From positions 320,231 to 384,230 of the forward strand of contig CAVWXK010000002.1 in the NCBI GenBank assembly GCA_963759165.1: a stretch of 64,000 nucleotides of DNA, read 5' to 3'. Shown one piece after another: positions 20,941 through 60,309 of the stretch (position 1 is the first letter of the stretch; each line of letters begins with the position of its first letter). The notes under the pieces were generated by a model. It was not told where the DNA came from, made no database searches, and saw only the letters and a program-made list of their open reading frames with translations. Made by a program: the position numbers and the translations under genes. The DNA is from an uncultured Pseudomonadota bacterium (GTDB lineage Bacteria; Desulfobacterota; Binatia; Binatales; Binataceae).

Positions 20941-21299
20941 CAAGCGCGAAGGGGTTCTCCCAAACTACGTCCGGCGCCTGACTCGGTTGGCGTTTCTGGC
21001 TCCCCGGATTGTTGAGGCCATCTCTGCCGGTTTTCAGCCGCCGGAGCTTACCGCGAAGGCTCTGAGCGAACGCATCGAACTTCCGCTACTTTGGAGCGAG
21101 CAGGAACGAACGGTCGGAATCAGCTAGTCAGCGCAATCTCGAAACTTTCGTTTAGCTTCGTCCGTCGTCGCAACTCCCGAACGGTCGCGCCGAATTTGCC
21201 AACAGAGATTTTGGCCGCAAATTACGCGTCACCTGCCCGAAAGTGGTTTTCTCCGCTACCACATAGATGCAAATGAAGCCGTCAGCGCGGGCTATTCGG
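20941..21299 (+). repeat. Direct repeat copy A: relic 3' end of a serine recombinase gene plus ~170 bp of downstream sequence
   Basis: Aligns colinearly with 59950..60309 with roughly a dozen mismatches. Encodes REGVLPNYVRRLTRLAFLAPRIVEAISAGFQPPELTAKALSERIELPLLWSEQERTVGIS-stop versus the C-terminus of the intact recombinase. Confidence 0.9.
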
Positions 21300-21666
21300 T
21301 GATTCGAGCAGAGAATCCGCAGACACTGGGACTCGGTGGCGGATGACGCAGTCTGCTGCGAACCATTCTCCGCGACAAATTCCCTGATCATCAGGGAAAA
21401 TACAGGGAATTTCCGCAATTTCGGTCTTCCTGGGGCCGACTCGCAGCCGAAAAAGCCTTGTCTTCTCTAGCGTTTTGTCGGAATTCTCTACTCAACGGAA
21501 CAGGGAATTTCCTTCGAACAACAGGGAAACCGCTTTCAGATTCATTCGATAGGCCAGCTGGGGCGATTATTTCCGCAGGCCATTTACGCTCCGCATTTAC
21601 GCTCCGTAGGAGACGAGTCCGCTAGCGCTCTTCTATTCCCTCCGTCCATGGTGTCCCATTTTATCA

Positions 21667-21695
21667 TTGACAACATAAACGCAGATAATTATAGT
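21667..21695 (+). promoter_or_regulatory. Candidate sigma70-type promoter for the Rrf2-oxidoreductase pair
   Basis: TTGACA (21667..21672), a 17-nt spacer, then TATAGT (21690..21695), about 100 nt upstream of ATG 21794. An ATAATTAT palindromic core overlaps the -10 element. Confidence 0.5.
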
Positions 21696-21793
21696 CCGCG
21701 TTATGGGCCGAATCGCCTTGGCCGGGCAGTACGCGGATATGATGAGTGCGATCTATCGCAGGCCGTTAGGCACAGAGTTTATGGGTCATAGTG

Positions 21794-22333
21794 ATGGCAC
21801 ACCTGACTGTGAGCGTCGAATACGGTATCCACTGTCTGCTTTGGCTTGCCGGCTCGGACGGGACGGCACTGAGCAGCCGCGACCTGGCGGAGCTGCAGAG
21901 AATATCCCCGAGCTTTCTCGCCAAGATTTTCCCGAAGCTTGAGAAGGCCGGGATCGTCGAGGCGAGCGAAGGCGTGCGGGGCGGATATAGGCTTGCCCAA
22001 CCGCCGGAGGAAATCAGCGTCCTACAAATCGTCGATGCGATCGAAGGCGACAAGCCGTTGTTCGACTGTCAGGAAATCCGCAGACGCTGCGCGACGTTCG
22101 GAGAGGTGCCGCCAACTTGGGCGACGGCCGGCGTTTGCGCCATCCACGCCGTGATGCTGAGGGCGGAAAAGGTGATGCGAGACGAGCTTGCAGCCCATTC
22201 CCTCGCCGACTTGGCGACGACCTTCGCTGGCAAGGCGCCGGAGGAATTCCTCGCCCAAGTGCAGGATTGGATGACCGATCGTGTGAGCGCCCGCAAGCCG
22301 GGACGGCGCACCAGGCCCGAACCGCCATCCTGA
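21794..22333 (+). CDS. Rrf2-family transcriptional regulator
   Basis: MAHLTVSVEYGIHCLLWLA...SSRDLAELQRISPSFLAKIFPKLEKAGIVEASEGVRGGYRLA is a typical Rrf2 winged helix-turn-helix. Cys residues follow (CQEIRRRC...C). Confidence 0.85.
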   Translation: MAHLTVSVEYGIHCLLWLAGSDGTALSSRDLAELQRISPSFLAKIFPKLEKAGIVEASEGVRGGYRLAQPPEEISVLQIVDAIEGDKPLFDCQEIRRRCATFGEVPPTWATAGVCAIHAVMLRAEKVMRDELAAHSLADLATTFAGKAPEEFLAQVQDWMTDRVSARKPGRRTRPEPPS

Positions 22334-22473
22334 TACCAGCCCGCCGCCGCCCGGCGGCCTTTTAACAATTCCTCCTTTCTCGGTATCCGCCGGACGCACC
22401 GAGAATGGGGGCCCGCTAGCCTTGCGGACCGAATGCTCTCTGCTGCGCCCGGTTTATGGAAGGAGCAAATATC

Positions 22474-23679
22474 ATGAGCAAGAAGATTGTGATCGCCGGT
22501 TCCGGTTTCGCTGGCTTGTGGGCCGCGCTTTCGGCCGCTCGGGCGGTAAGCCTGGCCGGCAAACAGCGGGACGTTGAGGTGACGGTGGTATCTCCCAGTC
22601 CGAGCTTGGTCATCCGCCCCCGGCTCTACGAAGCGGCGATCGAGAATATGGATCCCGACCTGACAGCGTTGTTCCAGGCCGTCGGTGTACGCCACGTGGC
22701 CGGCCGGATCGACACGATCCGCGCCGGGGCGCTCGAGACCGACGTGGCCGGCACCGACGGCCACCGCACCCTGACCTTCGACAAGTTCATCCTCGCTACC
22801 GGGAGCATCCTGTACCAGCCGCCGGTGCCGGGCCTTGCCGAGCACGCGTTCAACGTCGATCAGTTGTCCTCCGCCAAGGCGCTGGACGCCCATCTCAAGT
22901 CGCTGGCGGACAAGCCGAACAGCGTTGCACGCAACACGGTCGTCGTCGTCGGTGGCGGGCTGACCGGCGTCGAGACCGCCGCCGTGATGCCCCAGCGGCT
23001 GCGCGCCATTCTCGGCGGGACCGTGGAAATCCGGGTGGTGCTGATCGAGCAGGCACCGGTCATCGGCTCCAATCTCGGTCCGGCCGCCCGTCCAGTCGTC
23101 GAGGAGGCGTTGGCCGCCTGCGGCGTCGAGATCATCACCGATACAGCCGTCTCCTCCATCAAGGCCAATCGCATGACGACCTCCACCGGTCGGATCATTG
23201 AGACCGACACGGTTGTGTGGACGACCGGCGCTAGAGCCAACCCATTGGCCGACCAGATCGCCGGAGACCATGACCGCCTTGGCCGCATTCACGCCGATCC
23301 CTATCTGCGCGCCAACCGCGTCAAGGACGTGTTCGTCACCGGCGACGTGGCCTTTGCCGCCAGCGACGACATCGGCAACCACGCGCTGATGTCCTGCCAG
23401 CACGCCCTCAGCCTGGGGCGGGTCGCCGGCCACAACGCCGCGGCCGAACTGGTCGGCCTGCCGCTTCATCCCTACAGCCAGCCCAAATATGTGACGTGCA
23501 TCGACCTGGGCCCCTGGGGCGGGCTCTATACGGAGGGCTGGGACCGGCAGGTCCGTCTCACGCGGGACGACGCCAAGGCGCTCAAGATCGAGATCAACAC
23601 CAAATGGATCTACCCGCCGGCTGCCGACCGCGACGCCGTCTTCGCCATCTCCAATCCCGATTTCGTGATTGTCCCATGA
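22474..23679 (+). CDS. FAD/NAD(P)-dependent oxidoreductase of the NDH-2 / pyridine nucleotide-disulfide family
   Basis: MSKKIVIAGSGFAGLWAAL (GxGxxG), a second dinucleotide motif VVVVGGGLTGVETA, and the C-terminal motif VFVTGDVA. AAGGAG ribosome-binding site before ATG 22474. Confidence 0.8.
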   Translation: MSKKIVIAGSGFAGLWAALSAARAVSLAGKQRDVEVTVVSPSPSLVIRPRLYEAAIENMDPDLTALFQAVGVRHVAGRIDTIRAGALETDVAGTDGHRTLTFDKFILATGSILYQPPVPGLAEHAFNVDQLSSAKALDAHLKSLADKPNSVARNTVVVVGGGLTGVETAAVMPQRLRAILGGTVEIRVVLIEQAPVIGSNLGPAARPVVEEALAACGVEIITDTAVSSIKANRMTTSTGRIIETDTVVWTTGARANPLADQIAGDHDRLGRIHADPYLRANRVKDVFVTGDVAFAASDDIGNHALMSCQHALSLGRVAGHNAAAELVGLPLHPYSQPKYVTCIDLGPWGGLYTEGWDRQVRLTRDDAKALKIEINTKWIYPPAADRDAVFAISNPDFVIVP

Positions 23680-23973
23680 ACCGCAGCCAGCATCTTCCGG
23701 GCAACAGCCGATGCCTGGAAGATATCAGCCCCGCGTTCCTCCAGTTGCAGCCATGGCGGGCGTGGCTCACAAATTGGGCCATGCAGCGCGCCAACGGCCG
23801 CTCCTGGCGGCTTAGGAGACGGTCGCGGCAAAGCATTTTTGCACGTTTTTTTTGGCGGGCAAGAAACCCAATTTTGCTCTGGTCCAATCCACCATCGTTC
23901 ACTGATAGGGCTAATTCGCTTTCTGTAGCACAATTGCTCGAAAGCGGCGGGGGAGCGATGGCGGCATTTTCTC

Positions 23974-24576
23974 ATGCCCCCAATCGACGAGCGTGAGATC
24001 GTCCGGCACTACACGCTTGGCCAGGGTGACCTGGGTTTCGTTGCGGTAAAACGGCTGGCTCATAACCGTCTCGGGTTAGCGTTGCTGGTATGTTATCTCC
24101 GCTATCCGGACTGCCCGTTCGAATCCGATTCGGAGCCGCATCCTGCCATCCTCGCTGATGTCGCCCGCCAAGTCGGCGCCGAGCCCGGTGACTTCACCGA
24201 ATATCGCCGAAGGGAGCAAACGCGCCGGGAACAGTTGGCGAAAATCATGCGCCGAACTGGCCACCGCTTTTTCGACCGATCCATTTTCAAAGAGGTGGCC
24301 GCTTGGCTGGTCGCGCTTGCCTAGACGACCAAGAATCCGACCGATTTGGCAGCGGCCTTGGTTGACGAGCTACGCCGCCGCAAGGTGTTGCTCCCCTCGG
24401 CCGACGTGCTTGAACTTGTGTTACACCGTGCGCGCGGTCAGGCCGAGCGAGTGCTGCAACAGCCGGTCACGTCCGGTCTGTCGGTGGGCACGTCCGATGC
24501 GTCCGACCGCCTGCTCCAGCCTTGGGCGGACAGCGGCATGGCCATGCCGGCTCGGCTGCGCGAAGCCTTTGTGTAG
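23974..24576 (+). pseudogene. N-terminal ~200 codons of a Tn3-family transposase (DUF4158 region) with an in-frame TAG, 3'-truncated
   Basis: EREIVRHYTLGQGDLGFVAVKRLAHNRLGLALLVCYLRYPD is the TnpA N-terminal signature. TAG at 24322 is in frame with the continuation AAALVDELRRRKVLLPSADVLELVL. The reading frame ends at palindromic element copy a. Confidence 0.75.
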
Positions 24577-24613
24577 CGAATTGCTGTTTCGGGCAGAATT
24601 AGCAATCCGGCAC
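24570..24613. repeat. ~50-bp palindromic element, degenerate copy a
   Basis: tttgtgtagcgaattgctgtttc-gggca-gaattagcaatccggcac aligns with copies at 43232 and 45564. Confidence 0.6.
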
Positions 24614-24779
24614 TAACTCTCAACGGTTCAGGTCGTAGCTCGCCACGATTCATCGCAGGCTGCGGTCAGCTGGGGCGATCACGTCCGGGAGCCATTCACA
24701 CCAGCTAGGTGACGGGTTTGCTAGCGCCTCCCCTATGCTCTGCCGCGCAACCTTCAGATCTGGGTTTTCGGTACCCCCC

Positions 24780-26090
24780 CTAGCAGGCTGTTGATAAACG
24801 CCTGAATCTCATCGTTGGATTATTCGTCTTAATGAGCAAACGGATTGGTGGAGGAAGCGGCGGATGCGGGGTGAAGAGCGGCGGCAGCGGGCGATGTTGA
24901 TGATTATGGAGCCTGGCGATCGGGTGCCGAAGGAGCATCCGCTGAGGCGGGTCAAGGAACTCGCCGATGCGGCGCTGGCTCAGCTTTCGCCACTGTTCGA
25001 TGAGATGTACAGCGCGATCGGGCGACCGTCGATCCCGCCCGAGCGGCTGCTGAAGGCCTCGCTGCTGATGGCGCTCTATACGGTGCGCAGCGAACGGCTG
25101 TTCTGCGAGCAACTCGATTACAACCTGTTGTTCCGCTGGTTTCTCGATATGGATGCGGCCGAGCCGAGCTTCGACCATTCGACCTTCTCGCGCAACCGGG
25201 CGCGGCTGCTGGAGCACGACGTGGCGCGCGAGTTTTTCACCCGCGTGGTCGCGCAGGCCCGCAGTCTGCGGTTGCTTTCGGACGAACACTTCACCGTCGA
25301 TGGCACATTGGTCGAGGCTTGGGCGTCGCTCAAGAGCTTCAAGCGCAAGGACCCGGAACCGAGCCAGCCGCCCGACGACCCCGGCAACCCGACGGTTAAC
25401 TTCCACGGCGAGCGCCGCAGCAACGCGACTCATCAATCGACCACCGACCCCGAAGCCAAGCTGGCCAGGAAGGGCGCGGGCAAGGAAGCGAAGTTGTGTT
25501 ACTCGGCCAACGCGCTGATGGAGAACCGCAACGGTCTTCTGATCGAGTTCGCGGTCGAACCAGCCGACGGCTACGCCGAGCGCAAAAGCGCCCGCGCGAT
25601 GCTGGAGACCACATTGCCCGGCAGCCGGCGGATTACCCTCGGGGCCGACAAGGGCTACGATACTGCGGAGTTCGTCGCCTCGTGCCGCGCGCTCAAGGTC
25701 ACGCCACATATCGCGCGCAACCAGGGTCGCGCCGGCGGTTCCGCGCTCGACCGCCGCACTGCGCGTCATGTTGGCTACGCGGTGAGCCAAAGGGTACGCA
25801 AGCGGGTCGAAGAGATCTTCGGCTGGATGAAGACCGTCGGCGGCCTGCGCAAAACTCGCTATCGCGGCCTCGACCGCACCCAATTGCATGCCTACCTGGT
25901 GGCTGCCGCCTACAACCTGCTCCGAATCGCCAGACTCAGCCCGGCACCCGCATGAAGTACGATTCCACCACGCTACCGCGTTCGCCTCGGCCAGCGAAAA
26001 CCGTCGAACCCGGCGGCTGAATCCAGCACTTCTGTCACTACCATGGCGATCACAATGAATAATCACACCACTTTCTCAACAGCCTGCTAG
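24780..26090 (+). mobile_element. IS5-family insertion sequence, apparently intact
   Basis: Inverted termini ctagcaggctgttga (24780) and tcaacagcctgctag (to 26090), 15/16 matching with the next base included. Both junctions read c-ta / ta-g, consistent with insertion into a CTAG-type target with TA duplication. Confidence 0.8.
24864..25955 (+). CDS. IS5-family DDE transposase
   Basis: 363 aa. The N-terminal block GRPSIPPERLLKASLLMALYTVRSERLFCEQLDYNLLFRWFL (DUF772-type) and the C-terminal block RKRVEEIFGWMKTVGGLRKTRYRGLDR are classic IS5 features. Confidence 0.9.
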   Translation: MRGEERRQRAMLMIMEPGDRVPKEHPLRRVKELADAALAQLSPLFDEMYSAIGRPSIPPERLLKASLLMALYTVRSERLFCEQLDYNLLFRWFLDMDAAEPSFDHSTFSRNRARLLEHDVAREFFTRVVAQARSLRLLSDEHFTVDGTLVEAWASLKSFKRKDPEPSQPPDDPGNPTVNFHGERRSNATHQSTTDPEAKLARKGAGKEAKLCYSANALMENRNGLLIEFAVEPADGYAERKSARAMLETTLPGSRRITLGADKGYDTAEFVASCRALKVTPHIARNQGRAGGSALDRRTARHVGYAVSQRVRKRVEEIFGWMKTVGGLRKTRYRGLDRTQLHAYLVAAAYNLLRIARLSPAPA

Positions 26091-26612
26091 GGACCACCAG
26101 TGCTCATCTTCTGGGCATCGCCATCAAGGCCTGACTGTCCGTACTCAATCGAAACCACCAATCAATCAGCACGTACTAGGTTCTGAGGAGGCCCAAGGGC
26201 CAGAGCCCGGTTCCTGGCCTTAGGAGAGATGCCGAGTGTTGAGCTCCCGCGGCGTTGTCTGAGCGGCGGTTCGACACCCGCCTGAAGCGGCTGACTCACC
26301 TCGATCCAGCGTTCGACATCGTAGAGGCGGTTACACCCAACCCATCCACCAAAGGACATCCACCCCGCCGGAGAGACTTCCAGCCGAGCGTGCTCGGATT
26401 CTTCGACGGCGTCCGCCGATCACGGTCTCGAGCCCCCGGTTACACGCTAATTTGCCGCGGACAGCGGCGGCCATGCCCCGCTGTCGGACTTCTCTTCACC
26501 TCACGGCGAGATTTCTGAAAACAGGCACGCTCGAGTTGTGGTAGCCCTCGCAGATGAAGGGGGCCTTCTTCATGAAGGAGGCCTTCTGAAGGAGGCTCGA
26601 GGGTGAATTAAC

Positions 26613-26822
26613 ATGAAGAGAAATGGCGAAAAGCCCCCAAACATAGAGGCAAAGCCGATCGCGGTCACCTATCTCCCGATCAACGCGCTGAAGCTGGACC
26701 CCAGAAATCCGAGGATCCACAGCAACCGGCAGGTGCGCCAAATAGCTCGCAGCATCGGGGCGTTCGGCTTCAACGTGCCGGTCGTGATCGATGCCAACAA
26801 CAAGGTGCTCGCCGGGCACGGT
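26613..26822 (+). pseudogene. ParB-like nuclease N-terminal domain fragment (as found fused to DNA methyltransferases), truncated after AGHG
   Basis: IAVTYLPINALKLDPRNPRIHSNRQVRQIARSIGAFGFNVPVVIDANNKVLAGHG matches the ParB/Srx fold motif. Sequence beyond 26822 no longer matches this family. Confidence 0.6.
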
Positions 26823-27261
26823 CCGGTCGCTTTGCTGAATCCTTACCGTGGCCGACTAGCCACCGTCCGCGTGGATGACGATGGTGTCGGACACAAATTC
26901 GGGTTGCATCTGCGCGACCAACGATTCCAGGCCGACCTTGTCCACGTCGGCTTCCCTGTGGAAAGCAAGCCTGAACTGCAGGGCAACGATCCGGCCCTGC
27001 CCTTTTTCAATCAGAAAGCGCAACTGTATCAGCGCGTTGCAGACTTGTTGGAGCGCGATGGGCTCGACGGTCTGACCGACGATACGACGATCGCGCAATT
27101 CGCCAGCATCGCAGCCGCGTGCGATTTCCATCCCACCGGGCTCCGAGTGATTGCAGCCAAACGCTATTCGTTCTTGCGCTACCGCAAATTTCCGTTCAGA
27201 TGGGATTCTCAGCAGGGGCAGCCTTCCGGCCAACGCGCTGCTTGCGGGGGAGGATGTTCGC

Positions 27262-28470
27262 TCATGGCGACGGGTCCGAGTGCATGGGTTGCTGGGTCAA
27301 CAGCATCGGGCCGTACACGATCTCGAATAAGCCGAACGCCGCCATCCAGCACGCAGCCGACAAGGCAAGGAGAATCATCATGTCGTTTGTGTTCCAGGAT
27401 GCAGCGACTCGCGTGATCGCGGCGGCGTTGATGAGGACGAAGATGGCGACCGTTGCCCGGTTGGCAGTCAGTTCGCGCCCGGTATGTCCGAGCGTAACGC
27501 GGGGCATTACGGCGAGGATCATGGTGCCGATGGAGCCTGCGGTCAGCGCGTGGATCGCCGAAGCCACCGGAACTACGGTATCGAGAATCGAAAGTCCAAG
27601 AAGCGCCGTGCCGATCGCCACCCAGGCGTAGCCGAGATGCAAGATGAACAACAGTGGGTTTGCCCATGTCGAGCCGCCGGCCCAGCGGACAACCCGCCAC
27701 GCGTTGACTATGGCGGCGATGACCAGAATCATGCCGGCCACACGGAAATCGGGAAGCACAGCCCAGACAATAAACCCCGCGCAAAGCAGGCCGACCGCGG
27801 CACTGTCAACGGCGCTGTGAGCAGCCGGGAGACGCTCACTGTGGCGCTTGAGCAGCCAGTTGCGCGTGAAGCTCGGGATGATGCGCCCGCCTATCACCGA
27901 GATCAGCAGGATCGGCACCGCCAGCCCGAGGCGCCATCCGAGGCCGCTCGGTACGGGCATATCCAGAGACTCAAGGTGCATGAGCAAGTCGGCAATGATG
28001 AAAACCGCGAGGAGCGCGGTCATCGCCAGATTACGCCAGTTCCGGCTGACGATGATTTCGCGGGCAGCCACCGCGAGGAGCACCACCGGGAAAGACAAAT
28101 CGGCGACGATCGCCAGCCAAGCAGGAAGATCGGCCGAAATCAGGCAGGCGACGCGGCCGAGCAGCCACAGACCCGCGAGCAGAGCGAGCTGACAGCCCTG
28201 CACGGGCGGTCGACCGGTCCAGTTCGGAATGGCGGTCAGGAGGAACCCCGCAACCGCCGCCATCACGAAGCCGAACAGCATTTCGTGGATATGCCATGCC
28301 AGTGGGTCGAAGCGAGTCGGCGGGTGCAAGTATCCGAGGAACATGGCGAGCCACAGCGCGATAGCCAGGAGCGCCCAACTTCCGGCCGCGAGAAACAACG
28401 GGCGGAAAGCGTAAGTGAGCACCGCGGGCTGCCGTAGGCGGCGGGCGCGTTCTTCGGTCGTGGCGGTCAT
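27262..28470 (-). CDS. nnrS: NnrS-family haem/copper membrane protein (NO-response associated)
   Basis: 402 aa, polytopic, with the N-terminal block AFRPLFLAAGSWALLAIALW...DPLAWHIHEMLFGFVMAAVAGFLLTAIPNWTG typical of NnrS. Confidence 0.85.
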   Translation of the reverse strand: MTATTEERARRLRQPAVLTYAFRPLFLAAGSWALLAIALWLAMFLGYLHPPTRFDPLAWHIHEMLFGFVMAAVAGFLLTAIPNWTGRPPVQGCQLALLAGLWLLGRVACLISADLPAWLAIVADLSFPVVLLAVAAREIIVSRNWRNLAMTALLAVFIIADLLMHLESLDMPVPSGLGWRLGLAVPILLISVIGGRIIPSFTRNWLLKRHSERLPAAHSAVDSAAVGLLCAGFIVWAVLPDFRVAGMILVIAAIVNAWRVVRWAGGSTWANPLLFILHLGYAWVAIGTALLGLSILDTVVPVASAIHALTAGSIGTMILAVMPRVTLGHTGRELTANRATVAIFVLINAAAITRVAASWNTNDMMILLALSAACWMAAFGLFEIVYGPMLLTQQPMHSDPSP

Positions 28471-28889
28471 GTCTTTCTTCCGGACTTGCCAGCACTTCTT
28501 ATGGCTGTCCTGCGTTTGGGTCGTTCAGCCAGCAACACTTCGCGCAGGACAACGGCGTTGTTGTGCAGTTCGTCATGCGCCGCGAATAACAAAGTGACCG
28601 GACTCTTTCGCGCTAGGTCCCGAATCTTGCCGAGCGCTTCCGGTTGTCGGGCGAGTTCCGATTTATACCGTTTGCGGAATTCATCCCAGCGCTCGGGCTT
28701 GTGGCCGAACCATTGGCGGAGCGCGGCGCTGGGCGCCACATCCTTATACCAATGCACGGTAGCGGCGTCGGCCTTGCTCAAGCCTCTGGGCCAGAGGCGA
28801 TCGACCAGGACACACACGCCGTCGCTCGGCGCGGCCGGTTCATAGACCCGCCTGAGTTTGATCAGGGAGGAGTCCAGTCGCCGCGTCAT
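28467..28889 (-). CDS. DUF488-family protein
   Basis: IKLRRVYEPAAPSDGVCVLVDRLWPRGLSKADA...WYKDVAPSAALRQWFGHKPERWDEFRKRY matches the DUF488 consensus. 4-nt overlap with nnrS. Confidence 0.8.
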   Translation of the reverse strand: MTRRLDSSLIKLRRVYEPAAPSDGVCVLVDRLWPRGLSKADAATVHWYKDVAPSAALRQWFGHKPERWDEFRKRYKSELARQPEALGKIRDLARKSPVTLLFAAHDELHNNAVVLREVLLAERPKRRTAIRSAGKSGRKT

Positions 28890-28977
28890 AGAGGTCTCGC
28901 TTGGGGTTTAAGCAGGGCGGCGAGTTTCCTTCACTGGGCGCCCTTACTCCGATGACTTTAGCGTATAGACCGCGCAC

Positions 28978-31909: not shown

Positions 31910-31944
31910 GGAATCTCCTCCTGAAGCCGAACTACCTCCGTCGC

Positions 31945-51252: not shown

Positions 51253-51291
51253 TGAACAATTGCGAGATATCACAAATAAAGGAAACCCAAA

Positions 51292-51783: not shown

Positions 51784-51791
51784 GGATGGGC

Positions 51792-51878
51792 ATGGAAGGA
51801 CTGTTCGCTCTGAAAGGCAAGGTGGCTTTCGTTTCGGGGGCGTCCAGCGGCATTGCTACGAAGCCGAGTCCCCAATAA
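51792..51878 (+). pseudogene. N-terminal stub of a short-chain dehydrogenase/reductase
   Basis: MEGLFALKGKVAFVSGASSGIA matches the SDR TGxxxGIG start, then diverges and stops after 28 codons. Confidence 0.5.
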
Positions 51879-51888
51879 ATCTACCAAT

Positions 51889-52563: not shown

Positions 52564-52741
52564 ACCCAACGCTTTCGCTCTGGGCTGGGTCCATATAAGG
52601 CACTACCATCCCATCGTCGTAGCCCTCGCCGAAACCATTCTCTGCTGATGAGGAAAGTCGACGAGGTAATCGACAAGCACGGAGGCTGGCTTGCGGCGTT
52701 TTCATGGCCCGACGGCTGCCCGCCTCGAAGACAGTGGCACC

Positions 52742-53974: not shown

Positions 53975-54269
53975 CGGCATTCCATGCCGACGGGACGTAA
54001 CACGCTTGCCAGGAAAGTGGACGGCTGCAAAGTACGCATCCCCTACCAGCGGCTGGCCGCTGTGGAATGACTCCCGCCCCAAGGATCATCAAGAGGCGGT
54101 GAAAGCCTGCGTTGAAAAGCGCAGACCCAATTTCGTCGGGGCCGAATAGCCGCACCGTGTCTCAGGTTGAACACGAACTGGCGATCCGGTCGCGGACTTC
54201 TATTTGACGGGCGGGGCGTCGCCTCCGTATTGGACCAGTCCGCTTGCTTCGACCGCGCGCTGGGTAACC

Positions 54270-55988
54270 TCATCGCAGGGATTTGGCCAGTCGGCCACGC
54301 CCCTCAACCGTCAGGCGCCTCGAAACCGGCGCTTCGCTAAGCGAGGTGCGTCGAACGATCGCGTCGAGATCGTGGCTGCCCTCCAGCGTGCCGAACGTTC
54401 GTCCCGATTTCTTCTCCAGCCGGGTTTCCAGGAACGCGGACGCTACCGGGCTCGAAGAGTAACGGGCGATCACGCTTGCCTGTACGCCGAGAGCGAGCAT
54501 TTCGGTCAGTCGGCGAGCCTGCTGCGCGGCGAGTTCCGGGTCGCGGGCGATGGTTTCGATTTCGCTCGCCCATGCCCCGATCCGTCGATCGGCGGACGCG
54601 CCAAGCCTGATCTCATCCATTATCGCGTCCAGTGCGCCCGGCACGCGTCCGATCGCCCTGACCACGTCCATGCACATCATGTTGCTGGTGCCTTCCCAGA
54701 TGGTATTGATCGGCGCCTCCCGATAGAGCCTCGCCATCGGATGCTCTTCGACATAACCGTTACCCCCGATACACTCGAGCGCCTCTTCCACTACCACGGG
54801 AGCGCGCTTACAGTTCCAGTACTTGGCAACCGGAGTCAGAATCCGGGTCAAGCGGCGTTGCGATTCGTCGTGCTCGGCCCGGTCCAGCGCTCCCGCAAGC
54901 CGCATCGCGAGCAGCGTCGCCGCCTCCGATTCGAGCGCGAGGTCGGCCAGCGTGTTCTTCATCATCGGTTGGTCGATCAGATGCTTGCCAAATGCCTTGC
55001 GATGTTGCGCGTGAAACATCGCGAGGTTGAGCGCCTGCCGCAGCAGAGCGGCCGAGCCAATCGCGAAGTCCAGGCGAGTGTAGTCCGCCGACTCCAGGAT
55101 CGTGCGAACGCCGCGGCCTTCCTCGCCGACCAGAATTGCCCACGTGCCGGCCAGCTCGGTCTCGCTCGACGCGTTGGAACGGTTGCCGCACTTGTCCTTG
55201 AGGCGCTGGAGGAAGAAGCTGTTGCGGGTCCCGTCGGGCTTCCAGCGCGGCACGAAGAAACACGAGACGCCGCTCTGCGTTTGTGCGGTGGTGAAGAACC
55301 CGTCGCTCATCGGCGCCGAAAAGAACCACTTGTGTCCAGTCAGCTCGTAAATATCGGCGTCGGCGTCGCGGCCCACGCGCTGCGCGGTGGTCGAATTGGC
55401 GCGCAGATCCGAACCGCCCTGCTTTTCGGTCATCGCGTAGCCGACCGTAACCGCGCGCTTCTCGGACATCGGCTTGAACCCGGGATCGTAATCCTGAGCC
55501 GCGAGCTTCTTCAGCCATTCGCCCGAAAGCCGGCTCGACATCTGAAAGCCGCCGATGGCCGCGTAGGCCATCGAGGTCGGGCAGCCGGTTCCATTTTCCG
55601 CCTGATTCCAGAGATAGCTCAGCGCCGCGCGCGCCACATGTCCACCCGGCCGGTTGGCGTTGTACGCGAAGCAGTGAACTCCGGCTCCAAACGCGATCGC
55701 CATCAGCGCGTGATAAGCGGGATGGAATTCGACGTAATCGATCCGATTGCCGAAGCGGTCATAGCTGCGCAATTCGGGCGTGTGCTTGTTGGCGAGGCGC
55801 ACCAGTTCCGCCACGCGCTCGCTGGCAACGATTGCCCCGAACTCCGCGCAGTGATCGTGAGCCCATCCCGCACCCTCACGTTCCAGGGCCTCTACCAGAA
55901 TCGGGTCCTGAGTGAAGGCGTTGTGCCCCACCATCGGAGGCGTTTGATTCTCTACCGCGTGGCCGGCATCCACAGTCAGATTCGACAT
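54270..55988 (-). CDS. AidB-like acyl-CoA dehydrogenase family protein
   Basis: 572 aa with an N-terminal extension (NQTPPMVGHNAFTQDPILVEALEREGAGW...RSYDRFGNRIDYVEFHPAYHALM), then an ACAD core (GMTEKQGGSD, WFFSAP, IWEGTSN). Confidence 0.8.
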   Translation of the reverse strand: MSNLTVDAGHAVENQTPPMVGHNAFTQDPILVEALEREGAGWAHDHCAEFGAIVASERVAELVRLANKHTPELRSYDRFGNRIDYVEFHPAYHALMAIAFGAGVHCFAYNANRPGGHVARAALSYLWNQAENGTGCPTSMAYAAIGGFQMSSRLSGEWLKKLAAQDYDPGFKPMSEKRAVTVGYAMTEKQGGSDLRANSTTAQRVGRDADADIYELTGHKWFFSAPMSDGFFTTAQTQSGVSCFFVPRWKPDGTRNSFFLQRLKDKCGNRSNASSETELAGTWAILVGEEGRGVRTILESADYTRLDFAIGSAALLRQALNLAMFHAQHRKAFGKHLIDQPMMKNTLADLALESEAATLLAMRLAGALDRAEHDESQRRLTRILTPVAKYWNCKRAPVVVEEALECIGGNGYVEEHPMARLYREAPINTIWEGTSNMMCMDVVRAIGRVPGALDAIMDEIRLGASADRRIGAWASEIETIARDPELAAQQARRLTEMLALGVQASVIARYSSSPVASAFLETRLEKKSGRTFGTLEGSHDLDAIVRRTSLSEAPVSRRLTVEGRGRLAKSLR

Positions 55989-56109
55989 GATTGGCCTTCC
56001 CTCCCGCTGTCAGCCGTGCCGAGGCTGACGGATCTCGCCTTGGAGCGTTGATTATCGTTGAGCCCAGAACCGTGGACCACGAAATGCAGGAACTCAGGGC
56101 GTGGATCTA

Positions 56110-56472
56110 TCACCCGGTCCAGGCGCCTCCCTGGATGAGCACACCATTGTGGATGAGGAAGCCCCGCACCACGTTGCCATTGGCGACGGCGTCGCGTCCG
56201 GTCCAGCCCTTCTTGGCCACGAACTCAGAGATGGCCTCGTTCATGGCCTGCCGGGCCTTGGTGTTGATGAACAGGTCGCCCGTGACCTTCTTGCGCAGAA
56301 GGCAGCCAGCTACGAGCTCGTCGGGCGACTTGCCTGTCTGCTCGCTGAAGTCCGCCAGGATCCCAAGCAGACGCTCTTGCATCTCGGGTGGATCCTTGTC
56401 GTGCCCGGCGCTGGCGAACCAGCGGCGGACCGTCCGGAAGGAACGGATGTCTGTGCCGCCAGGGACGTTCAA
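56110..56472 (-). CDS. Hypothetical protein downstream of the nitroreductase
   Basis: 120-aa ORF 34 nt after the nitroreductase stop. No family recognised. The start could be the internal Met (MQERLLGIL...). Confidence 0.35.
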   Translation of the reverse strand: MNVPGGTDIRSFRTVRRWFASAGHDKDPPEMQERLLGILADFSEQTGKSPDELVAGCLLRKKVTGDLFINTKARQAMNEAISEFVAKKGWTGRDAVANGNVVRGFLIHNGVLIQGGAWTG

Positions 56473-56505
56473 ATCGGATACCCTCGTGTCGGCTCGGTCG
56501 TTCGC

Positions 56506-57291
56506 CTACATGGGAAGGCCGAAGCGCTCCGCCAGCTTGCGGATCTCGGCCTTACGCGGACCATCCGGCGACATGGGCTCCTGGATAAGCCCCCGCCGCT
56601 TGAGCTTCTCCGTCACTGCCTGGTCCTCAGGGAATGGGACGCCGTACTGTCCCAGGAAGTTGTTCTCGCTCAAAGGACGCCGGGGACGCTGCCCGCCTGC
56701 CTTGGGGTCCTCGGCGGGGTAGCCGACCAGGAGCATCCACATTGGGAACCAGTGGTCGGGGACTTTGAGCACATCCTTGGCCACGTTCGCGTCGAAGGCG
56801 TGCAGGCCCGCCCCGAGCCCCTCCTCGAAGGCGGCCAGCAAAGCCTGGCAGATGGCCAAGCCGCACTCGACGGAAAGGAACCACATGTTGAGCGTCGGAT
56901 CGTTGGCGAACGCTCCGATGACGTTGCCCCAGATCACATCATCGACGTAGGCGTGTGACCAGCCATGGGTGGCGGGGAGGGCGCCCAGGTCGACCAGCTG
57001 CTTGAGACGCGTTTTCCCCTGGGCTGGGTATTTCATGTCGCCGTAAAAGAAAATCCACACGGGGGCGAGGTCCAGCGCCACGTTGGTGGTCGGCGTTTTC
57101 AGCCGCTGGCGGACATCGTCGCTGATCTCGTCACGATAGACGACGATGCTCTTGCAGAAGTCGACGTTGATTCCCCGAGACGACCGGTTGGCGGCCTCCA
57201 GGATGACCTGGATCTTCTCGGGCTCTACCGGTTTGTTGGGCTCGAAGAATCGGATCGTGCGCCGGTTTCCGAGCACTTGCATGAACTCCAT
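56506..57291 (-). CDS. Nitroreductase-family protein
   Basis: MEFMQVLGNRRTIRFFEPNKPVEPEKIQVILEAANRSS is a typical nitroreductase N-terminus. Later LAICQALLAAFEEGLGAG. GAGAGGA ribosome-binding site before ATG 57291. Confidence 0.7.
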   Translation of the reverse strand: MEFMQVLGNRRTIRFFEPNKPVEPEKIQVILEAANRSSRGINVDFCKSIVVYRDEISDDVRQRLKTPTTNVALDLAPVWIFFYGDMKYPAQGKTRLKQLVDLGALPATHGWSHAYVDDVIWGNVIGAFANDPTLNMWFLSVECGLAICQALLAAFEEGLGAGLHAFDANVAKDVLKVPDHWFPMWMLLVGYPAEDPKAGGQRPRRPLSENNFLGQYGVPFPEDQAVTEKLKRRGLIQEPMSPDGPRKAEIRKLAERFGLPM

Positions 57292-57451
57292 CGGTGTTCC
57301 TCTCGTGTTCGGGGAACCCACCGGCGAGAAGCCGAGAAGGCCCGTGCCGACAAGACCGCATCTAGCGCCGGTTCACGTTCCCGGTCAAGGTCCTAAACCC
57401 CTGCTCGAATCGTGGTGAAATCGGCGGTAAGCCGGGCGCAGGCCGCCGCGC

Positions 57452-57790
57452 CTACTCTTTGATGTTACGCCACCCGCGCCTGCCCCAACGCGCCTCAGCC
57501 TTGTTGCCGAGCGCGGCCTGGTTGTTGTTCTTGCTGTAGGCGTAGGGCAGGAACGCCTCGGCGTCGATGCGCGCGAGCGCCTGGCAGCTGCCGTAGATGT
57601 CGGCCTCGACGTAGGTCGCCCCGCGAGCACCTTCACGATCCGAATCTGGCCGAGCGCGTCGAGCACCGTGTTGGCAAGTTCCAGGGTAGCGATGCCGGTA
57701 TCGCTGAGAGTCGGTTTGGTCTTGAAGCCCGCTATGACGCCGACGAGCCGCGACGGAGCGCAGTCAATTCGAACTCTCCGGCGACCTTCG
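57452..57790 (-). pseudogene. Unidentified 3' gene remnant with an internal frame change, adjacent to the prophage left edge
   Basis: The minus strand reads ...IDCAPSRLVGVIAGFKTKPTLSDTGIATLELANTVLDALGQIRIVKVLAG, then after a 1-nt shift ATYVEADIYGSCQALARIDAEAFLPYAYSKNNNQAALGNKAEARWGRRGWRNIKE-stop. A stop codon lies upstream and there is no start. Family not recognised. Confidence 0.3.
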
Positions 57791-57981
57791 GCGGAAGTGG
57801 CGCAAATCAGGCGAATCTACATACGCCCCTGGCGTTCGAAATCTCCGCCGCGCAGGACTGGCTCCGTGCCGCGAATCGAGCAATGTGTGTGTCATTGGGC
57901 GGCAAATCGCCCGCCTCGAGGAGGACCACATATGAGCTTGAATGTCGACCTGAAGGTCGCGAAATATCGAGAGAAACGATT

Positions 57982-58461
57982 ATGAAGCGGCGGGCCCCGG
58001 CCATGGACCGTGAGGCGCTTGCCGCGGAAATCGCGGGCCTGTCGAAGATCGGTACTGAGGAACTCCGCCAGCGCTGGAAAACGATGTATGGGAAGGCGCC
58101 TTCCCGAGAAATCGGCCGGTCCTTTCTGACTCGCGCGATCGCCTACCGTCTCCAGAAGCGGGCTTACGGCGGACTCAAACCCTCAACCCGCCGACTGCTA
58201 GCCCGGGCCGCAGAAGGGACCGCGACTGCATCAGCGAAGAGACCCCAGACCCGAATGGCCCAATCGGGAACAATCCTGATTCGAGAGTGGCAAGGTGCCG
58301 CTCACCGGGTGACGATGCTCGACGACGGAGTGTCATTCAATGGGAAGCGCTACCGTTCGCTCTCGGAAGTAGCACGCGAGATAACGGGCAGCAGATGGTC
58401 AGGACCGCGATTCTTCGGGCTACGATCGCAGGCAATGGAGAATAACAATGGAACGGCCTAA
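57982..58461 (+). CDS. DUF2924-family protein (recombinase-associated)
   Basis: LRQRWKTMYGKAPSREIGRSFLTRAIAYRLQKRAYGGLK...LIREWQGAAHRVTMLDDGVSFNGKRYRSLSEVAREITGSRWSGPRFFGL matches DUF2924. Overlaps the recombinase start. Confidence 0.75.
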   Translation: MKRRAPAMDREALAAEIAGLSKIGTEELRQRWKTMYGKAPSREIGRSFLTRAIAYRLQKRAYGGLKPSTRRLLARAAEGTATASAKRPQTRMAQSGTILIREWQGAAHRVTMLDDGVSFNGKRYRSLSEVAREITGSRWSGPRFFGLRSQAMENNNGTA

Positions 58462-60136
58462 ATCACCAAATCGCCGCTGTGCGATCTACACACGCAAATC
58501 GTCCGAAGAGGGCCTCGAGCAGGACTTCAACTCGCTGCACGCGCGGCGCGAGGCGTGCGAAGCGTTCATCAAGAGCCAGACGGGCGAGGGCTGGCGGCTC
58601 ATCAAGACCGCCTACGATGATGGTGGCCTTTCGGGCGGGACGATGGAACGACCGGCTCTTCAGCGCCTGCTCGCTGATATCAGTCAAGGACTAGTTGATG
58701 TTGTTGTCGTATATAAGGTTGACCGCTTGACCCGCTCGCTGACCGACTTCGCCAAGATGGGCGAAGTGTTCGACGCACGGGGAGTTTCGTTCGTAGCAGT
58801 AACCCAACAGTTCAATACGACGACATCGCTGGGACGCCTGACGCTCAACGTCCTGCTGTCCTTCGCCCAGTTCGAGCGCGAGGTAACCGGTGAGAGGATC
58901 CGCGACAAGATCGCCGCCTCCAAGCAGAAGGGGATGTGGATGGGCGGTCTGGTCCCGATCGGCTACGACGTGATTGATCGCCGCCTTCAGGTCAATCAAA
59001 CGGAAGCCGAGACTGTACGAGAGATCTTCCGTCGATACCTGGAACTCGGGTCCGTCCGGCTTCTGATGGAGAATTTGAACCGCCGCGGCCTCCGCTCCAA
59101 AGTACGGGTGGCGAAGAACGGCAAACGATCGGGCGGGAACCTGTTCTTCCGAGGAGCGCTCTATGAACTGCTCTCAAATCCCATTTACATCGGCGAGATT
59201 CGCCACAAGGGTGTCCGCCACCCGGGGCTGCATGAGCCGATCGTGGATCGCGAGTTGTGGGACGGTACACAGCTGCTACTGCGAAGCCATGCGGCGCGGC
59301 GCACACCACGAGCAACGAAATCAGCCGCAAGTCCGCTTACGGGCAGGCTGTTCGACGAAAGCGGCCAGAGCCTGACGCCCACTCACGCGGTGAAGGGCGA
59401 GCGCAGATATCACTACTACGTATCACGCAGCCTGATAACGGGCACCGTGGATTCGGCCGCACGCGGGTGGCGCCTGCCAGCACCAGAGATCGAGCGTTGC
59501 GTCGCAGCTGCGACCTGCACGCCTTTAAGTGACCACGCGGCAATTGCGGAAGCCACTCACACCATCGGTCTTGCCGAGAGTCGGCTTCCGTCGATCTTCT
59601 CCGCCGCAGGAACCTGGATGAAACGCTTGCAATCGGAGGTTGAAGTCGGCGCTGCTTTAAAAGGCTTGGTTGATCGCGTGGATCTCCTCGATACAGGCAT
59701 TCGCGTTGCGCTCAAGCTGCCCAATTCCATCGCAGAGGAACAGCACAGTGCGAACGTCGCCGAACTGAATATCACGCGCGTCTTCCCGATGCAGATCAGA
59801 CGGCGCGGCTTCGAATTGCGTCTGGTTATCCAAGGCAGTCGCGCGTCAGCTCCACTGGCCGATCTCGCGCTCATGAAAGCGATCGCGCGGGGACGCCAAT
59901 GGGCGGACGATTTGCTTGCCGGTCGGATGGAATCAGTTGCCGTGATCGCCAAGCGCGAAGGGATTCTCCCGAACTACGTCCGGCGCCTGACTCGGTTGGC
60001 GTTTCTGGCTCCCCGGATTGTTGAGGCCATCTCTGCCGGTCAGCAGCCGCCGGAACTTACCGCGAAGGCTCTGACCGAACGCATCGAACTCCCGCTAATT
60101 TGGAGCGAGCAGGAACGAACGGTCGGAATCAGCTAG
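58448..60136 (+). CDS. Large serine recombinase (resolvase domain plus recombinase/zinc-ribbon domains)
   Basis: 562 aa. RCAIYTRKSSEEGLEQDFNSL (catalytic Ser context), VVVVYKVDRLTRSL, FAQFEREVTGERIRDK and YDVIDRRLQVNQTEAETVREIF. Confidence 0.9.
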   Translation: MERPKSPNRRCAIYTRKSSEEGLEQDFNSLHARREACEAFIKSQTGEGWRLIKTAYDDGGLSGGTMERPALQRLLADISQGLVDVVVVYKVDRLTRSLTDFAKMGEVFDARGVSFVAVTQQFNTTTSLGRLTLNVLLSFAQFEREVTGERIRDKIAASKQKGMWMGGLVPIGYDVIDRRLQVNQTEAETVREIFRRYLELGSVRLLMENLNRRGLRSKVRVAKNGKRSGGNLFFRGALYELLSNPIYIGEIRHKGVRHPGLHEPIVDRELWDGTQLLLRSHAARRTPRATKSAASPLTGRLFDESGQSLTPTHAVKGERRYHYYVSRSLITGTVDSAARGWRLPAPEIERCVAAATCTPLSDHAAIAEATHTIGLAESRLPSIFSAAGTWMKRLQSEVEVGAALKGLVDRVDLLDTGIRVALKLPNSIAEEQHSANVAELNITRVFPMQIRRRGFELRLVIQGSRASAPLADLALMKAIARGRQWADDLLAGRMESVAVIAKREGILPNYVRRLTRLAFLAPRIVEAISAGQQPPELTAKALTERIELPLIWSEQERTVGIS

Positions 60137-60309
60137 TCAGCGCAATCTCGAAACTTTCGTTTAGCTTCGTCCGTCGTCGCAACTCCCAAACGGTCGCGCC
60201 GAATTTGCCAACAGAGATTTTGGCCGCAAATTACGCGTCACCTGCCCGAAAGTGGTTTTCTCCGCTACCACATAGATGCAAATGGAGCCGCTGGCGCGGG
60301 CTATTCGGC
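59950..60309 (+). repeat. Direct repeat copy B (3' end of the intact recombinase gene plus downstream sequence)
   Basis: Colinear with 20941..21299; see copy A. Confidence 0.9.

Follow-up and report, generated by a model that had tools for sequence, protein, structure and literature searches.

The window (the whole 64,000-nt stretch analyzed here, on contig C2 of an uncultured-lineage assembly that comprises two contigs, C1 and C2, and is 82.6% complete) carries a 39-kb accessory segment bracketed by a pair of direct repeats, each of which includes the 3′ end of a large serine recombinase gene. The features at this locus, in window positions unless a contig is named, are as follows:

20383..20864, minus strand: truncated IS481-family transposase fragment, C-terminal rve_3 part only (Pfam rve_3, E=2e-14)
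20865..20939, no strand: unique filler of 75 bp separating the IS fragment from the recombinase remains, read from the sequence
20940..21127, plus strand: probable remains of an older large serine recombinase gene, its 3′-terminal 61 codons and stop (coding part of the left repeat copy)
21128..21336, plus strand: probable P arm of the older island, non-coding, from the recombinase stop to the tRNA-end core (non-coding part of the left copy)
21337..21343, plus strand: common core TGGCGGA, the 7 bases with which the tRNA-Ser 3′ end begins on this strand, predicted to hold the crossover point
21344..21440, plus strand: left-end P′ arm of the 39-kb island (TGACGCAGTCTGCTGCGAACCATTCTCCGCG...)
21344..60312, plus strand: island 2, the accessory island at tRNA-Ser(GGA), up to the prophage interruption of its right arm
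24780..26094, plus strand: IS5/IS1182-type IS (blastn; DUF772 and DDE_Tnp_1 on ORF 24864–25955)
29005..30058, plus strand: IS481-family IS copy, with 81% identity to the copy at 230–1268
57982..58461, plus strand: DUF2924 gene (Pfam DUF2924, E=4e-46)
58448..60136, plus strand: intact large serine recombinase gene of island 2, 562 aa (Pfam Resolvase, Recombinase)
59949..60312, plus strand: in-window part of the right repeat copy, recombinase 3′ end and proximal P arm (MAFFT, offset scan, blastn)
60296..60312, plus strand: left member of an exact 17-bp duplication (GCGGGCTATTCGGCCAT) flanking the prophage remnant; right member at C2:391801–391817
60313..64000 and on to C2:391800, minus strand: Mu-like transposable prophage remnant, 11,258 bp in total, in the P arm between recombinase and tRNA
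C2:391818–391857, outside the window: last 40 bp of the right repeat copy, beyond the prophage remnant

The two repeat copies share 96.1% identity over 360 bp by blastn (20940–21299 versus 59949–60308, E=2e-166) and 97% in a repeat search (20940–21239 versus 59949–60248), similarity that lies far beyond chance; the same pair is recovered by MAFFT and by an ungapped offset scan (offset of 39,009). An earlier note on this DNA had reported colinear repeats at 20941..21299 and 59950..60309, which all four methods bear out, but its length of ~360 bp describes only the contiguous part: the uninterrupted match (364 bp) extends to 21303/60312, where the right copy is broken at 60313 by an 11,258-bp insertion, the Mu-like remnant, that the note had missed. 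Past this insertion, the left copy is again colinear with C2:391818–391857, and, with the insert spliced out, the full unit measures 404 bp (20940–21343), with 19 mismatches (95.3% identity). Its right end is the CCA end of a tRNA-Ser(GGA) gene lying 11.5 kb rightward, outside the window. The right copy was correctly recognized as the true 3′ end of the recombinase gene plus ~170 bp: it consists of the last 61 codons and stop of ORF 58448–60136, followed by 176 bp. The label “downstream DNA” falls short: the repeat is tied to tRNA-Ser(GGA) and is an attachment-site arm.

The left copy holds only the last 61 codons of a recombinase, as the note had also stated, with 9 nucleotide mismatches in 188 bp and 4 amino-acid differences relative to 59949–60136 (90% identity to recombinase residues 500 to 562 by tblastn). 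The IS debris that it was said to abut does not adjoin it immediately, being separated by the 75-bp filler, which contains a perfect 32-bp palindrome (20869–20900) and has no second copy in the genome. The IS fragment itself forms an inverted repeat with IS copies at 802–1217 and 29577–29992 and matches other IS copies on C2 (blastn). Downstream of the relic stop codon, the P arm is colinear with 60137–60312 plus C2:391818–391850 and with an uninterrupted relative (L017), shares 80% identity with a P arm at C1:1132516–1132665 (blastn), and returned neither an Rfam match nor excess RNA folding.

The last seven bases of the left copy, TGGCGGA, are identical to C2:391851–391857, the 3′ end of tRNA-Ser(GGA); past this point, the right copy and L017 run on into the tRNA gene, whereas the left copy departs from the tRNA sequence directly and switches to a conserved island left-end sequence, forming a junction of tRNA-end core and P′ arm at 21337–21375. 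The crossover is bracketed only to the shared core (TGGCGGA here, and CGGA(G) from the junction at C1:1439 compared with tRNA-Ser(TGA)), about which dyad symmetry is weak (11 of 24 positions). An exact stop of the left copy at the tRNA-end core, with island left-end sequence joined on there, is the signature of two islands in tandem, and the first alternative of the note, that a second, closely related recombinase-bearing element at 20.9 kb had lost its 5′ part, is thereby supported. The left repeat thus appears to be what remains of the right end of an older island whose recombinase gene was shortened by the IS fragment.

An assembly artefact, in which a repeat was misjoined or duplicated in a metagenome-assembled genome, would be conceivable in a two-contig, 82.6% complete assembly of an uncultured lineage. 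Since 19 positions distinguish the copies and their four flanks are all unique and unlike one another, the repeat is not a collapsed one, and the same junction type is seen independently in other assemblies; as such, we regard an artefact as highly improbable.

The recombinase of island 2 combines a Resolvase domain (PF00239, E=4.8e-36) with a Recombinase domain (PF07508, E=3.3e-14, residues 185 to 278), and its catalytic domain aligns with that of the TP901-1 integrase (phmmer, E=5e-21; AIYTRKSS aligned to AIYTRVST), retaining the serine of the YTRxS motif. It lacks a CxxC...CxxC (Cys4) motif, having five cysteines in all and none paired, and has no Pfam zinc-ribbon match. The AF2 model (pTM of only 0.37) matches full-length Bxb1, SPbeta, and PhiC31 integrases and, by Foldseek, aligns with the A118 C-terminal fragment 4KIS (E=2.5e-13) as well as with full-length Bxb1 and SprA; at that same low pTM, residues 308 to 461 are modeled as a beta-hairpin, long helices, and then beta strands. 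The DUF2924 gene, whose reading frame is open from 57883 with a likely start at M34 (57982), has a stop that overlaps the recombinase start. Its predicted fold has no PDB match. Of 80 homologous loci in other genomes (48 to 83% identity to the recombinase), 79 have a DUF2924 gene immediately before the recombinase gene, suggesting that DUF2924 is an obligate partner.

The insertion that splits the right copy encodes Mor, a tape measure protein, MuB-like (AAA_22, phrog_296) and MuA-like (rve and Mu-transpos_C, phrog_310) proteins, and, as regulators, a Ner-like HTH_35 protein and a repressor. It reaches 7.6 kb past the window end and is bounded by 28-bp terminal inverted repeats (TGTAGCTTTGCAGATGGTTTGATCTATT and TGTGACTTTGCAGATGGTTTGATCTATT; ends TGTAGC... 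and ...GTCACA). At 11.3 kb, and with no head genes, it is far too short to be anything but a remnant. It is flanked by a 17-bp duplication, not the 5-bp target-site duplication of Mu-like phages.

Between the repeats, Pfam matches agree with the earlier gene inventory: Rrf2 with an NDH-2-like gene, a Tn3 fragment, an IS5-like IS, NnrS, DUF488, and an IS481-like IS; acyl-CoA dehydrogenase, cupin, a split M24 peptidase, a further Rrf2, hemerythrin, ClC, and qNOR; a TPP enzyme, radical SAM/SPASM, SCP2, and acetone-carboxylase-like alpha, beta, and gamma subunits; and SRAP, a DinB-type polymerase, AidB, and nitroreductase. The IS5/IS1182-type element has three further copies on C1, with identities of 99.9% (two copies) and 96.6% (one copy). 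Island 2 itself carries neither phage nor transfer genes. The 39 kb is probably one IS-riddled genomic island rather than a special recombination device, and what had been a “bracketed segment” would become a precisely bounded island running from 21344 to the end of tRNA-Ser(GGA); the NO-detoxification, acetone-carboxylase-like, and DNA-damage genes would then be horizontally acquired cargo and not traits of the lineage.

The 39-kb interval is missing as a block from 40 of 40 relatives, its interior being neither syntenic nor contiguous in any of them. Occupancy of the tRNA-Ser(GGA) site is variable, and in most relatives the site is empty: among 20 sites compared (21 with contig L099 of relative G001), a recombinase adjoins the tRNA gene in only one (G002, of the same genus), and about ten carry unrelated sequence right up to TGGCGGAG, similarity at unoccupied sites stopping exactly at this tRNA end. 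In homologous loci, the island boundary is likewise the tRNA end. A tRNA gene (mostly tRNA-Ser) lies on the opposite strand 163 to 441 bp downstream of the recombinase in 39 of the 80, the corresponding distance here being 209 bp from recombinase stop to tRNA-Ser(GGA) once the Mu-like insert is spliced out; several of the remaining loci have P-core-P′ junctions behind an intact recombinase (L032, L044, and L050, also L022, L029, and L060).

The same pattern recurs within this genome. A search for other copies of the recombinase returned relics and two more full-length homologues, each beside an opposite-strand tRNA-Ser: one intact (C1:2060–3739, tRNA-Ser(TGA)) and one frameshifted (C1:1130734–1132417, tRNA-Ser(GCT)). 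Junctions of core plus P′ occur at four to five further places, with near-identical P′ sequence following TGGCGGA at C1:1094164 (344 bp past another recombinase 3′ relic) and C1:128453(−), and diverged versions at C1:1060661, C1:1439 (behind a recombinase relic), and C2:499026. These observations weigh on a different reading, in which the ~400-bp repeats are functional attL and attR sites of a 39-kb element, with a long identity segment and the recombinase 3′ end inside the att site. Direct repeats around the segment and a recombinase gene at one end are what such a reading would lead one to see. Serine recombinases, however, exchange strands at a 2-bp crossover; the same P′ follows TGGCGGA behind quite different upstream sequences; and both the unoccupied sites of relatives and the homologous loci place the boundary at the tRNA end, not inside the recombinase gene, leaving this reading with very little probability.

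We favor, with a probability of roughly 80%, the explanation that the repeats arose as a structural by-product of a tandem of two related islands at the 3′ end of the single tRNA-Ser(GGA) gene, a reading that draws on the anatomy of the junction, the presence of the same junction type elsewhere, the family-wide adjacency to tRNA genes, and the variable occupancy of the site. The right end of each island would consist of a DUF2924 gene, a large serine recombinase gene, and a non-coding P arm of ~215 bp abutting the CCA end of the tRNA. The older island would have been the first at tRNA-Ser(GGA); the related island 2 (now 39 kb) would then have recombined via the short core TGGCGGA at the tRNA end, its entry displacing the older right end outward and creating the internal P-core-P′ junction at 21337–21344. 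Later, an IS481-family element and an associated deletion would have reduced the older recombinase to its last 61 codons, and transposition of a Mu-like phage into the P arm of island 2 would have moved recombinase and tRNA 11.3 kb apart. Both repeat edges would thereby be explained, the left by IS-mediated truncation and the right by the attachment core together with the Mu-like insertion.

A single island could instead have been duplicated in tandem, either because a circular dimer integrated or because an incoming copy recombined homologously with a resident one through the ~2.3-kb DUF2924/recombinase/P-arm region, after which IS events removed nearly all of the first copy and left its last 404 bp. 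The 95.3% identity would suffice for homologous recombination, an IS fragment adjoins the left relic, and a Marinacidobacterales MAG contains two 100% identical recombinase ends 55 kb apart (L044 and L045), one at a P-core-P′ junction and the other at the tRNA, that look like such a duplication. Nevertheless, 19 differences in 404 bp speak against a recent event, the DNA to the left (a QHNDH operon and RND efflux genes) has no counterpart in island 2, the other arrays of this genome clearly derive from dissimilar islands, and partial duplication by dimer or homologous recombination alone leaves the precise end of the copy at the core unexplained, such that we consider this route unlikely.

For the tandem of two related islands, the stacking may have been catalyzed by the recombinase itself, using the tRNA half-site with any sequence on the other side. 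Canonical large serine recombinases are not known to recombine attP with a hybrid site of the attR type, so stacking by this enzyme would be non-canonical. Against recombinase-driven stacking, the right ends here are 95% alike, and the same anatomy would result if an incoming circle recombined homologously with the resident island or if a dimer integrated. In the other arrays of the genome, the inner P arm resembles the outer one at only ~55%, too little for homologous recombination to have made their junctions.

Since no proper left attachment site for island 2 was found, site-specific excision of the island is presumably no longer possible. Nor was the leftmost attachment site of the array found; an island origin of the DNA left of 20.9 kb is only patchily supported, the sole sequence hint being a weak 47-bp motif at 1295–1341. 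The 364-bp uninterrupted repeat could still delete island 2 by homologous recombination. Of the two rearrangements proposed in the earlier note, deletion stands and inversion does not, because the repeats are in direct orientation; amplification is a further outcome that such repeats can mediate. Deletion would free a 39,009-bp circle with an intact P-core-P′ site and an intact recombinase and without the Mu-like insert. We tentatively suggest, as a possibility that we hold to be rather doubtful, that this recombinase family reads only the tRNA side, accepts any other side, could thereby enter sites that are already occupied (in effect attP × attR), and stacks arrays at every tRNA-Ser, the leftover repeat serving as a homologous-recombination “escape hatch” that regenerates an integration-competent circle. 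If so, the hatch would work even after IS and Mu insertions had damaged the true attachment sites.

The architecture resembles the tDNA island arrays of tyrosine integrases (Islander/TIGER) in that the tRNA is intact, the newest island adjoins it with older ones displaced outward, each junction retains a tRNA 3′-end fragment, cargo is of accessory metabolism and stress genes, and older units decay via IS activity. It differs in having a large serine recombinase with DUF2924 in place of a tyrosine recombinase, and in sharing ~7 tRNA-end bases at the junction versus the usual tens of bases. The 2015 literature ascribed the tRNA target class to tyrosine integrases alone, the Islander paper naming theirs as the one family known to target tDNAs (PMC4383910); the present locus would illustrate, for a Binatia genome, how a serine integrase stacks islands at a tRNA gene.

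As in Bxb1, PhiC31, A118, TP901-1, and SPbeta SprA, an N-terminal resolvase-type catalytic domain with conserved serine precedes the recombinase domain, and full-length Bxb1 and SprA structures can be aligned to the predicted model across ~500 columns. Sequence identity to canonical large serine integrases is only 13 to 20%, and, unlike these, the protein lacks a Cys4 zinc-ribbon motif in its C-terminal half and has an extra C-terminal helical domain (residues ~473 to 559 in the AF2 model), what appears to be an obligate DUF2924 partner, tRNA gene ends as targets, and attP-like junctions inside arrays that canonical attP × attB logic does not predict. No RDF, the factor that governs attP × attB directionality in serine integrases, was found. 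Conserved, universal tRNA-end targets combined with apparent indifference to the other half-site would be of practical interest for integrase technology.

The best annotated phage homologue, with 46.6% identity across 73% of the protein, is the recombinase of the Acidithiobacillus caldus phage AcaML1, which is temperate and complete at 59 kb and whose recombinase is annotated as split into two ORFs: its module comprises Gp4, followed by Gp3 and Gp2 (“site specific recombinase” large and small subunits), and, as here, a small gene lies directly upstream of the recombinase. Its attB is given as “srrA,” with 10-bp direct repeats (PMC3826726, Table 2), which we would read as the tmRNA gene ssrA, i.e., a tRNA-like gene end; island 2, by contrast, belongs to a tandem array at a genuine tRNA-Ser gene. 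Much more distant are the serine recombinases of Wolbachia phage WO, with homology along 97% of the length at ~35% identity; one paper that pairs DUF2924 with serine recombinases concerns Wolbachia (PMC11376236).

The ~360-bp direct repeat that brackets the 39-kb accessory segment is the ordinary scar of tandem island integration. As described in the earlier note (20941-21299 versus 59950-60309), it is recovered by four alignment methods: MAFFT, a repeat search, an ungapped offset scan (offset +39,009), and blastn, the last of which, run against the whole genome (two contigs, C1 and C2, 3.85 Mb, with the window at 320231-384230 of the 578-kb C2), pairs 20940-21299 with 59949-60308 at 96.1% identity over 360 bp (E about 1e-166). 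The features involved are these:

20940-21343, left copy of the repeat, the right end of an older island
21344 to the tRNA-Ser(GGA) end, the 39-kb accessory island (island 2)
58448-60136, large serine recombinase of island 2
59949-60312, right copy of the repeat, up to its interruption
60313 to C2:391800, insert X, 11,258 bp, extending past the window's right edge
C2:391851-391942, minus strand, the sole tRNA-Ser(GGA) gene of the genome (aragorn)

The right copy comprises, as had been claimed, the 3' end of the recombinase ORF (61 codons and the stop) plus downstream DNA, and the left copy encodes those 61 codons only, with 4 amino-acid changes. The further claim that the left copy abuts insertion-sequence debris holds in part: a truncated IS481-family transposase fragment lies to its left on the opposite strand, but a 75-bp unique spacer separates the two. 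This spacer (20865-20939) contains a perfect 32-bp palindrome (20869-20900) and has no other copy in the genome (blastn-short), which rules it out as a repeat element.

The precise alignment that the earlier note proposed extends the unit further. With X and one copy of its flanking duplication spliced out, the two copies align over 404 bp (19 mismatches, 95.3% identity), and both also align to the uninterrupted arrangement in L017, the locus of the closest relative (recombinase 83% identical). In whole-genome blastn, left-copy positions 21281-21343 match C2:391795-391857, and the left copy resembles a third recombinase locus (C1:1132 kb, beside tRNA-Ser(GCT) at C1:1132659-1132750; aragorn) up to 21343. 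The unit closes with seven bases, TGGCGGA (the core), with which, on this strand, the tRNA 3' end begins; beyond them, the right copy and L017 run into the tRNA, whereas the left copy switches to TGACGCAGTCTGCTGCGAACCATTCTCCGCG. The conserved non-coding DNA between recombinase stop and tRNA end (the P arm) is rejected as an RNA gene: an Rfam scan of 20900-21700 finds no structured RNA, and P-arm folding gives z=+1.64. Aragorn also calls a "tRNA-Ser(ACT)" of unusual anticodon at C2:204981-205056, which may be a pseudo-tRNA or a mis-call.

The sequence to which the left copy switches recurs, nearly identical and again directly after TGGCGGA, at C1:1094164 (344 bp past a recombinase 3' relic, C1:1093278-1093820) and at C1:128453 (minus strand); diverged copies occur at C1:1060661, C2:499026, and C1:1439, the last following a recombinase relic at C1:8-1120. 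From this recurrence, we read it as the left end (P') of this island type; in a circular form, the core would link it to the P arm. The junction at 21337-21344 would thus be a P-core-P' site, as expected between two such islands in tandem. At the C1:1439 junction, only CGGAG is shared with tRNA-Ser(TGA), whereas identity at the window junction continues through TGGCGGA; comparing the window junction with the C1:1439 junction and tRNA-Ser(TGA) would bracket the crossover to CGGA. A dyad-symmetry scan of the junction places the best centre at the TG of TGGCGGA, but the symmetry is too weak to be informative (11/24 positions match). Immediately within the left end of the island (21385-21415 and 21482-21528) is a cluster of short repeats of the form CAGGGAA(T/A)TT, which recur beside an IS copy (1295-1341) and at C1:1072853. 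An island protein might bind them, or they might point to where the older island began on the left. A 47-bp stretch at 1295-1341 resembles 21482-21528, though too weakly to be accepted as an island end, and no further P' motif occurs on C2 left of the window that could mark the array's leftmost attachment site.

The other boundary was compared across tRNA-Ser(GGA) loci from 20 relatives plus one contig (L099) of relative G001. About ten relatives have unrelated sequence right up to TGGCGGAG and represent unoccupied sites; because these diverge at TGGCGGAG, the island boundary lies exactly at the tRNA end. Several others carry ~110 bp of P-arm-like sequence with no recombinase within 5 kb, G009 has a recombinase relic about 3.5 kb from the tRNA, and one relative of the same genus, G002, has DUF2924 and recombinase genes beside it. 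Taken together, these loci indicate that the non-tRNA side of the target is unconserved. To the right of the tRNA lie agmatine deiminase and CN-hydrolase genes, which are found at 65-79% identity in nearly all of 40 relatives searched but adjoin the tRNA only within the same genus.

Presence of the 39-kb interval in relatives, a comparison also suggested in the earlier note, proves negative for its interior: 30.1-50.0 kb is contiguous in 0/40 genomes, which yield scattered single-gene matches on different contigs. The 19 kb left of the relic are also patchy, with the amine-dehydrogenase operon contiguous in G002 only. The gene inventory previously given for the interval (Rrf2/NDH-2 pair, NO island, ALS-like gene, radical SAM block, acxABC, and DNA-damage genes) is borne out by Pfam, and debris is present as well:

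Tn3 transposase fragment (Pfam)
IS5-like insertion sequence, also present on C1 in three further copies (99.9% identity for two, 96.6% for the third)
IS481-like insertion sequence
31945-32553 (Peptidase_M24) and 32569-33069 (Creatinase_N), minus strand, split M24 peptidase/creatinase-type gene, probably a frameshifted pseudogene

A search for other copies of the recombinase, likewise suggested, returns 3' relics and two further full-length homologues, each a few hundred bp from a tRNA-Ser 3' end and on the opposite strand:

C1:2060-3739, intact, beside tRNA-Ser(TGA)
C1:1130734-1132417, frameshifted, beside tRNA-Ser(GCT)

The second belongs to a larger array (C1:1060661-1132750; loci L008, L010, L012, and L016) with junctions at C1:1060661 and C1:1094164 and recombinase 3' relics at C1:1072402 and C1:1093278. 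Its tRNA-proximal enzyme is a mosaic relative to that of the window (86% identity over residues 1-349, 61% in the C-terminal DNA-binding part), and the left end of this enzyme's island is almost identical to window 21337-21375. A relic island at C1:~113000-128453, with its P' end at C1:128453 (minus strand), carries acetone-carboxylase-like paralogues 63-73% identical to those at 46.8-51.7 kb of the window.

The association extends to other genomes. In a survey of one genome per prokaryote species, we collected 80 homologue loci (48-83% identity), mainly from Binatia ("Deltaproteobacteria bacterium" and Candidatus Binatus MAGs) and Alphaproteobacteria. A tRNA gene lies 163-441 bp beyond the recombinase stop in 39 of these, on the opposite strand in every case (aragorn); most are tRNA-Ser (GGA, GCT, CGA, TGA), with Met, Ala, Gln, Ile, Arg, and Lys also represented. 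Seven of the other loci end too early past the recombinase to judge adjacency, and several among the remainder retain a degenerate tRNA end. A stacked arrangement, with a P-core-P' junction behind an intact recombinase, occurs in loci L032, L044, and L050, and also in L022, L029, and L060. DUF2924 lies directly upstream of the recombinase in all but one of the 80 loci.

The suggestion that a second element once sat at the left copy and lost its 5' part is right, the older recombinase being reduced to 61 codons at a P-core-P' junction. In the other arrays of the genome, the inner P arms are only ~55% similar to the outer ones, so these junctions are not products of homologous recombination; there, a new island would enter an already occupied tRNA end site-specifically, which fits a target specified on the tRNA side only. 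By analogy, the same site-specific route is the best-supported reading of the window pair. Formation by homologous recombination or from a dimer is possible, given that the P arms of the window pair are 95% alike, and ranks below it. A possible example is L044 and L045, which lie 55 kb apart on the same Marinacidobacterales MAG contig and have 100% identical recombinase proteins and P arms; tRNA-Ser(GGA) adjoins one locus and a P-core-P' junction the other. Exact tandem duplication or the integration of a dimer would account for this pair, although an assembly effect is possible.

Of the two recombinases, the older is defunct, and the younger is intact but separated from the tRNA end by 11.5 kb. 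With no proper left attachment site found for island 2 or the array, canonical site-specific excision is now unlikely. By its geometry, the 364 bp of uninterrupted direct repeat could support RecA-type deletion; inversion, also entertained in the earlier note, is not expected, since the repeats are direct. The deletion product would be a 39,009-bp circle in which the P-core-P' site and the DUF2924/recombinase pair are intact and the Mu-like insert is absent; the relic, X, and the tRNA would stay on the chromosome.

The recombinase ORF matches Pfam Resolvase (E=4.8e-36) and Recombinase (E=3.3e-14), and alignment with TP901-1 integrase shows that its catalytic-serine motif is retained. Its AlphaFold model (38 homologues, mean pLDDT 76.5, pTM 0.37) is matched by Foldseek to the full-length Bxb1, SPbeta SprA, PhiC31, and A118 integrases (E down to 2e-16). 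The protein lacks the Cys4 zinc-ribbon motif (four zinc-binding cysteines), though its predicted fold aligns along the whole of Bxb1 and SprA. An extra helical domain is predicted at its C-terminus (residues ~473-559), and the coding part of the repeat corresponds to the final 61 residues of this domain. The preceding DUF2924 gene, whose stop overlaps the recombinase start, is open from 57883 to 58461; homologues begin at the equivalent of M34 (57982), upstream of which several close relatives have in-frame stops. Its predicted fold comprises two confident domains, one helical and one small beta domain, and has no match in the PDB (best E=0.4). The ORF at 57668-57985 is rejected as a third, DUF3489-like module gene: it has no Pfam match even at E=1, and what tblastn aligns to it is overlapping DUF2924 sequence in another frame.

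Tandem islands built by tyrosine integrases at tRNA genes are textbook; less ordinary than the repeat scar is the serine-recombinase/DUF2924 system that probably built this array. According to the 2015 Islander paper, tDNAs were known as targets of the tyrosine family only (PMC4383910). Among annotated phages, the recombinase has its nearest relative in Acidithiobacillus phage AcaML1 (46.6% identity over 73% of the protein), where a small gene likewise lies immediately upstream; the attB published for AcaML1 is "srrA", which we take to be the tmRNA gene, with 10-bp repeats (PMC3826726). Our literature search found no description of DUF2924-linked serine recombinases as tRNA-targeting, with AcaML1 at "srrA" the nearest lead.

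Insert X, together with its flanking duplications, spans 60296 to C2:391817 (66-11587 of locus L014). It ends in 28-bp inverted repeats (TGT at the start, ACA at the end), lies between two exact copies of a 17-bp sequence, GCGGGCTATTCGGCCAT, and encodes:

repressor
Ner-like HTH_35 protein
MuA-type transposase (rve and Mu-transpos_C, phrog_310)
MuB-type ATPase (phrog_296)
tail chaperone
tape measure protein
Mor-family activator

These ends and the gene set identify X as a deleted Mu-like prophage, and the position of the Mor-like gene beyond the tape measure gene indicates that it is also internally rearranged. Mu-type transposition typically yields a 5-bp duplication; X may derive from two copies that had inserted into neighbouring P arms at positions offset by 12 bp and then recombined. 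Just past the break in the right copy, 60313-60358 matches C1:2405383-2405428 (whole-genome blastn), a solo 46-bp copy of the X left end (98% identical; locus L004) that lies ~65 bp from the 3' end of tRNA-Ser(CGA), a tRNA that otherwise seems to be without a recombinase island.
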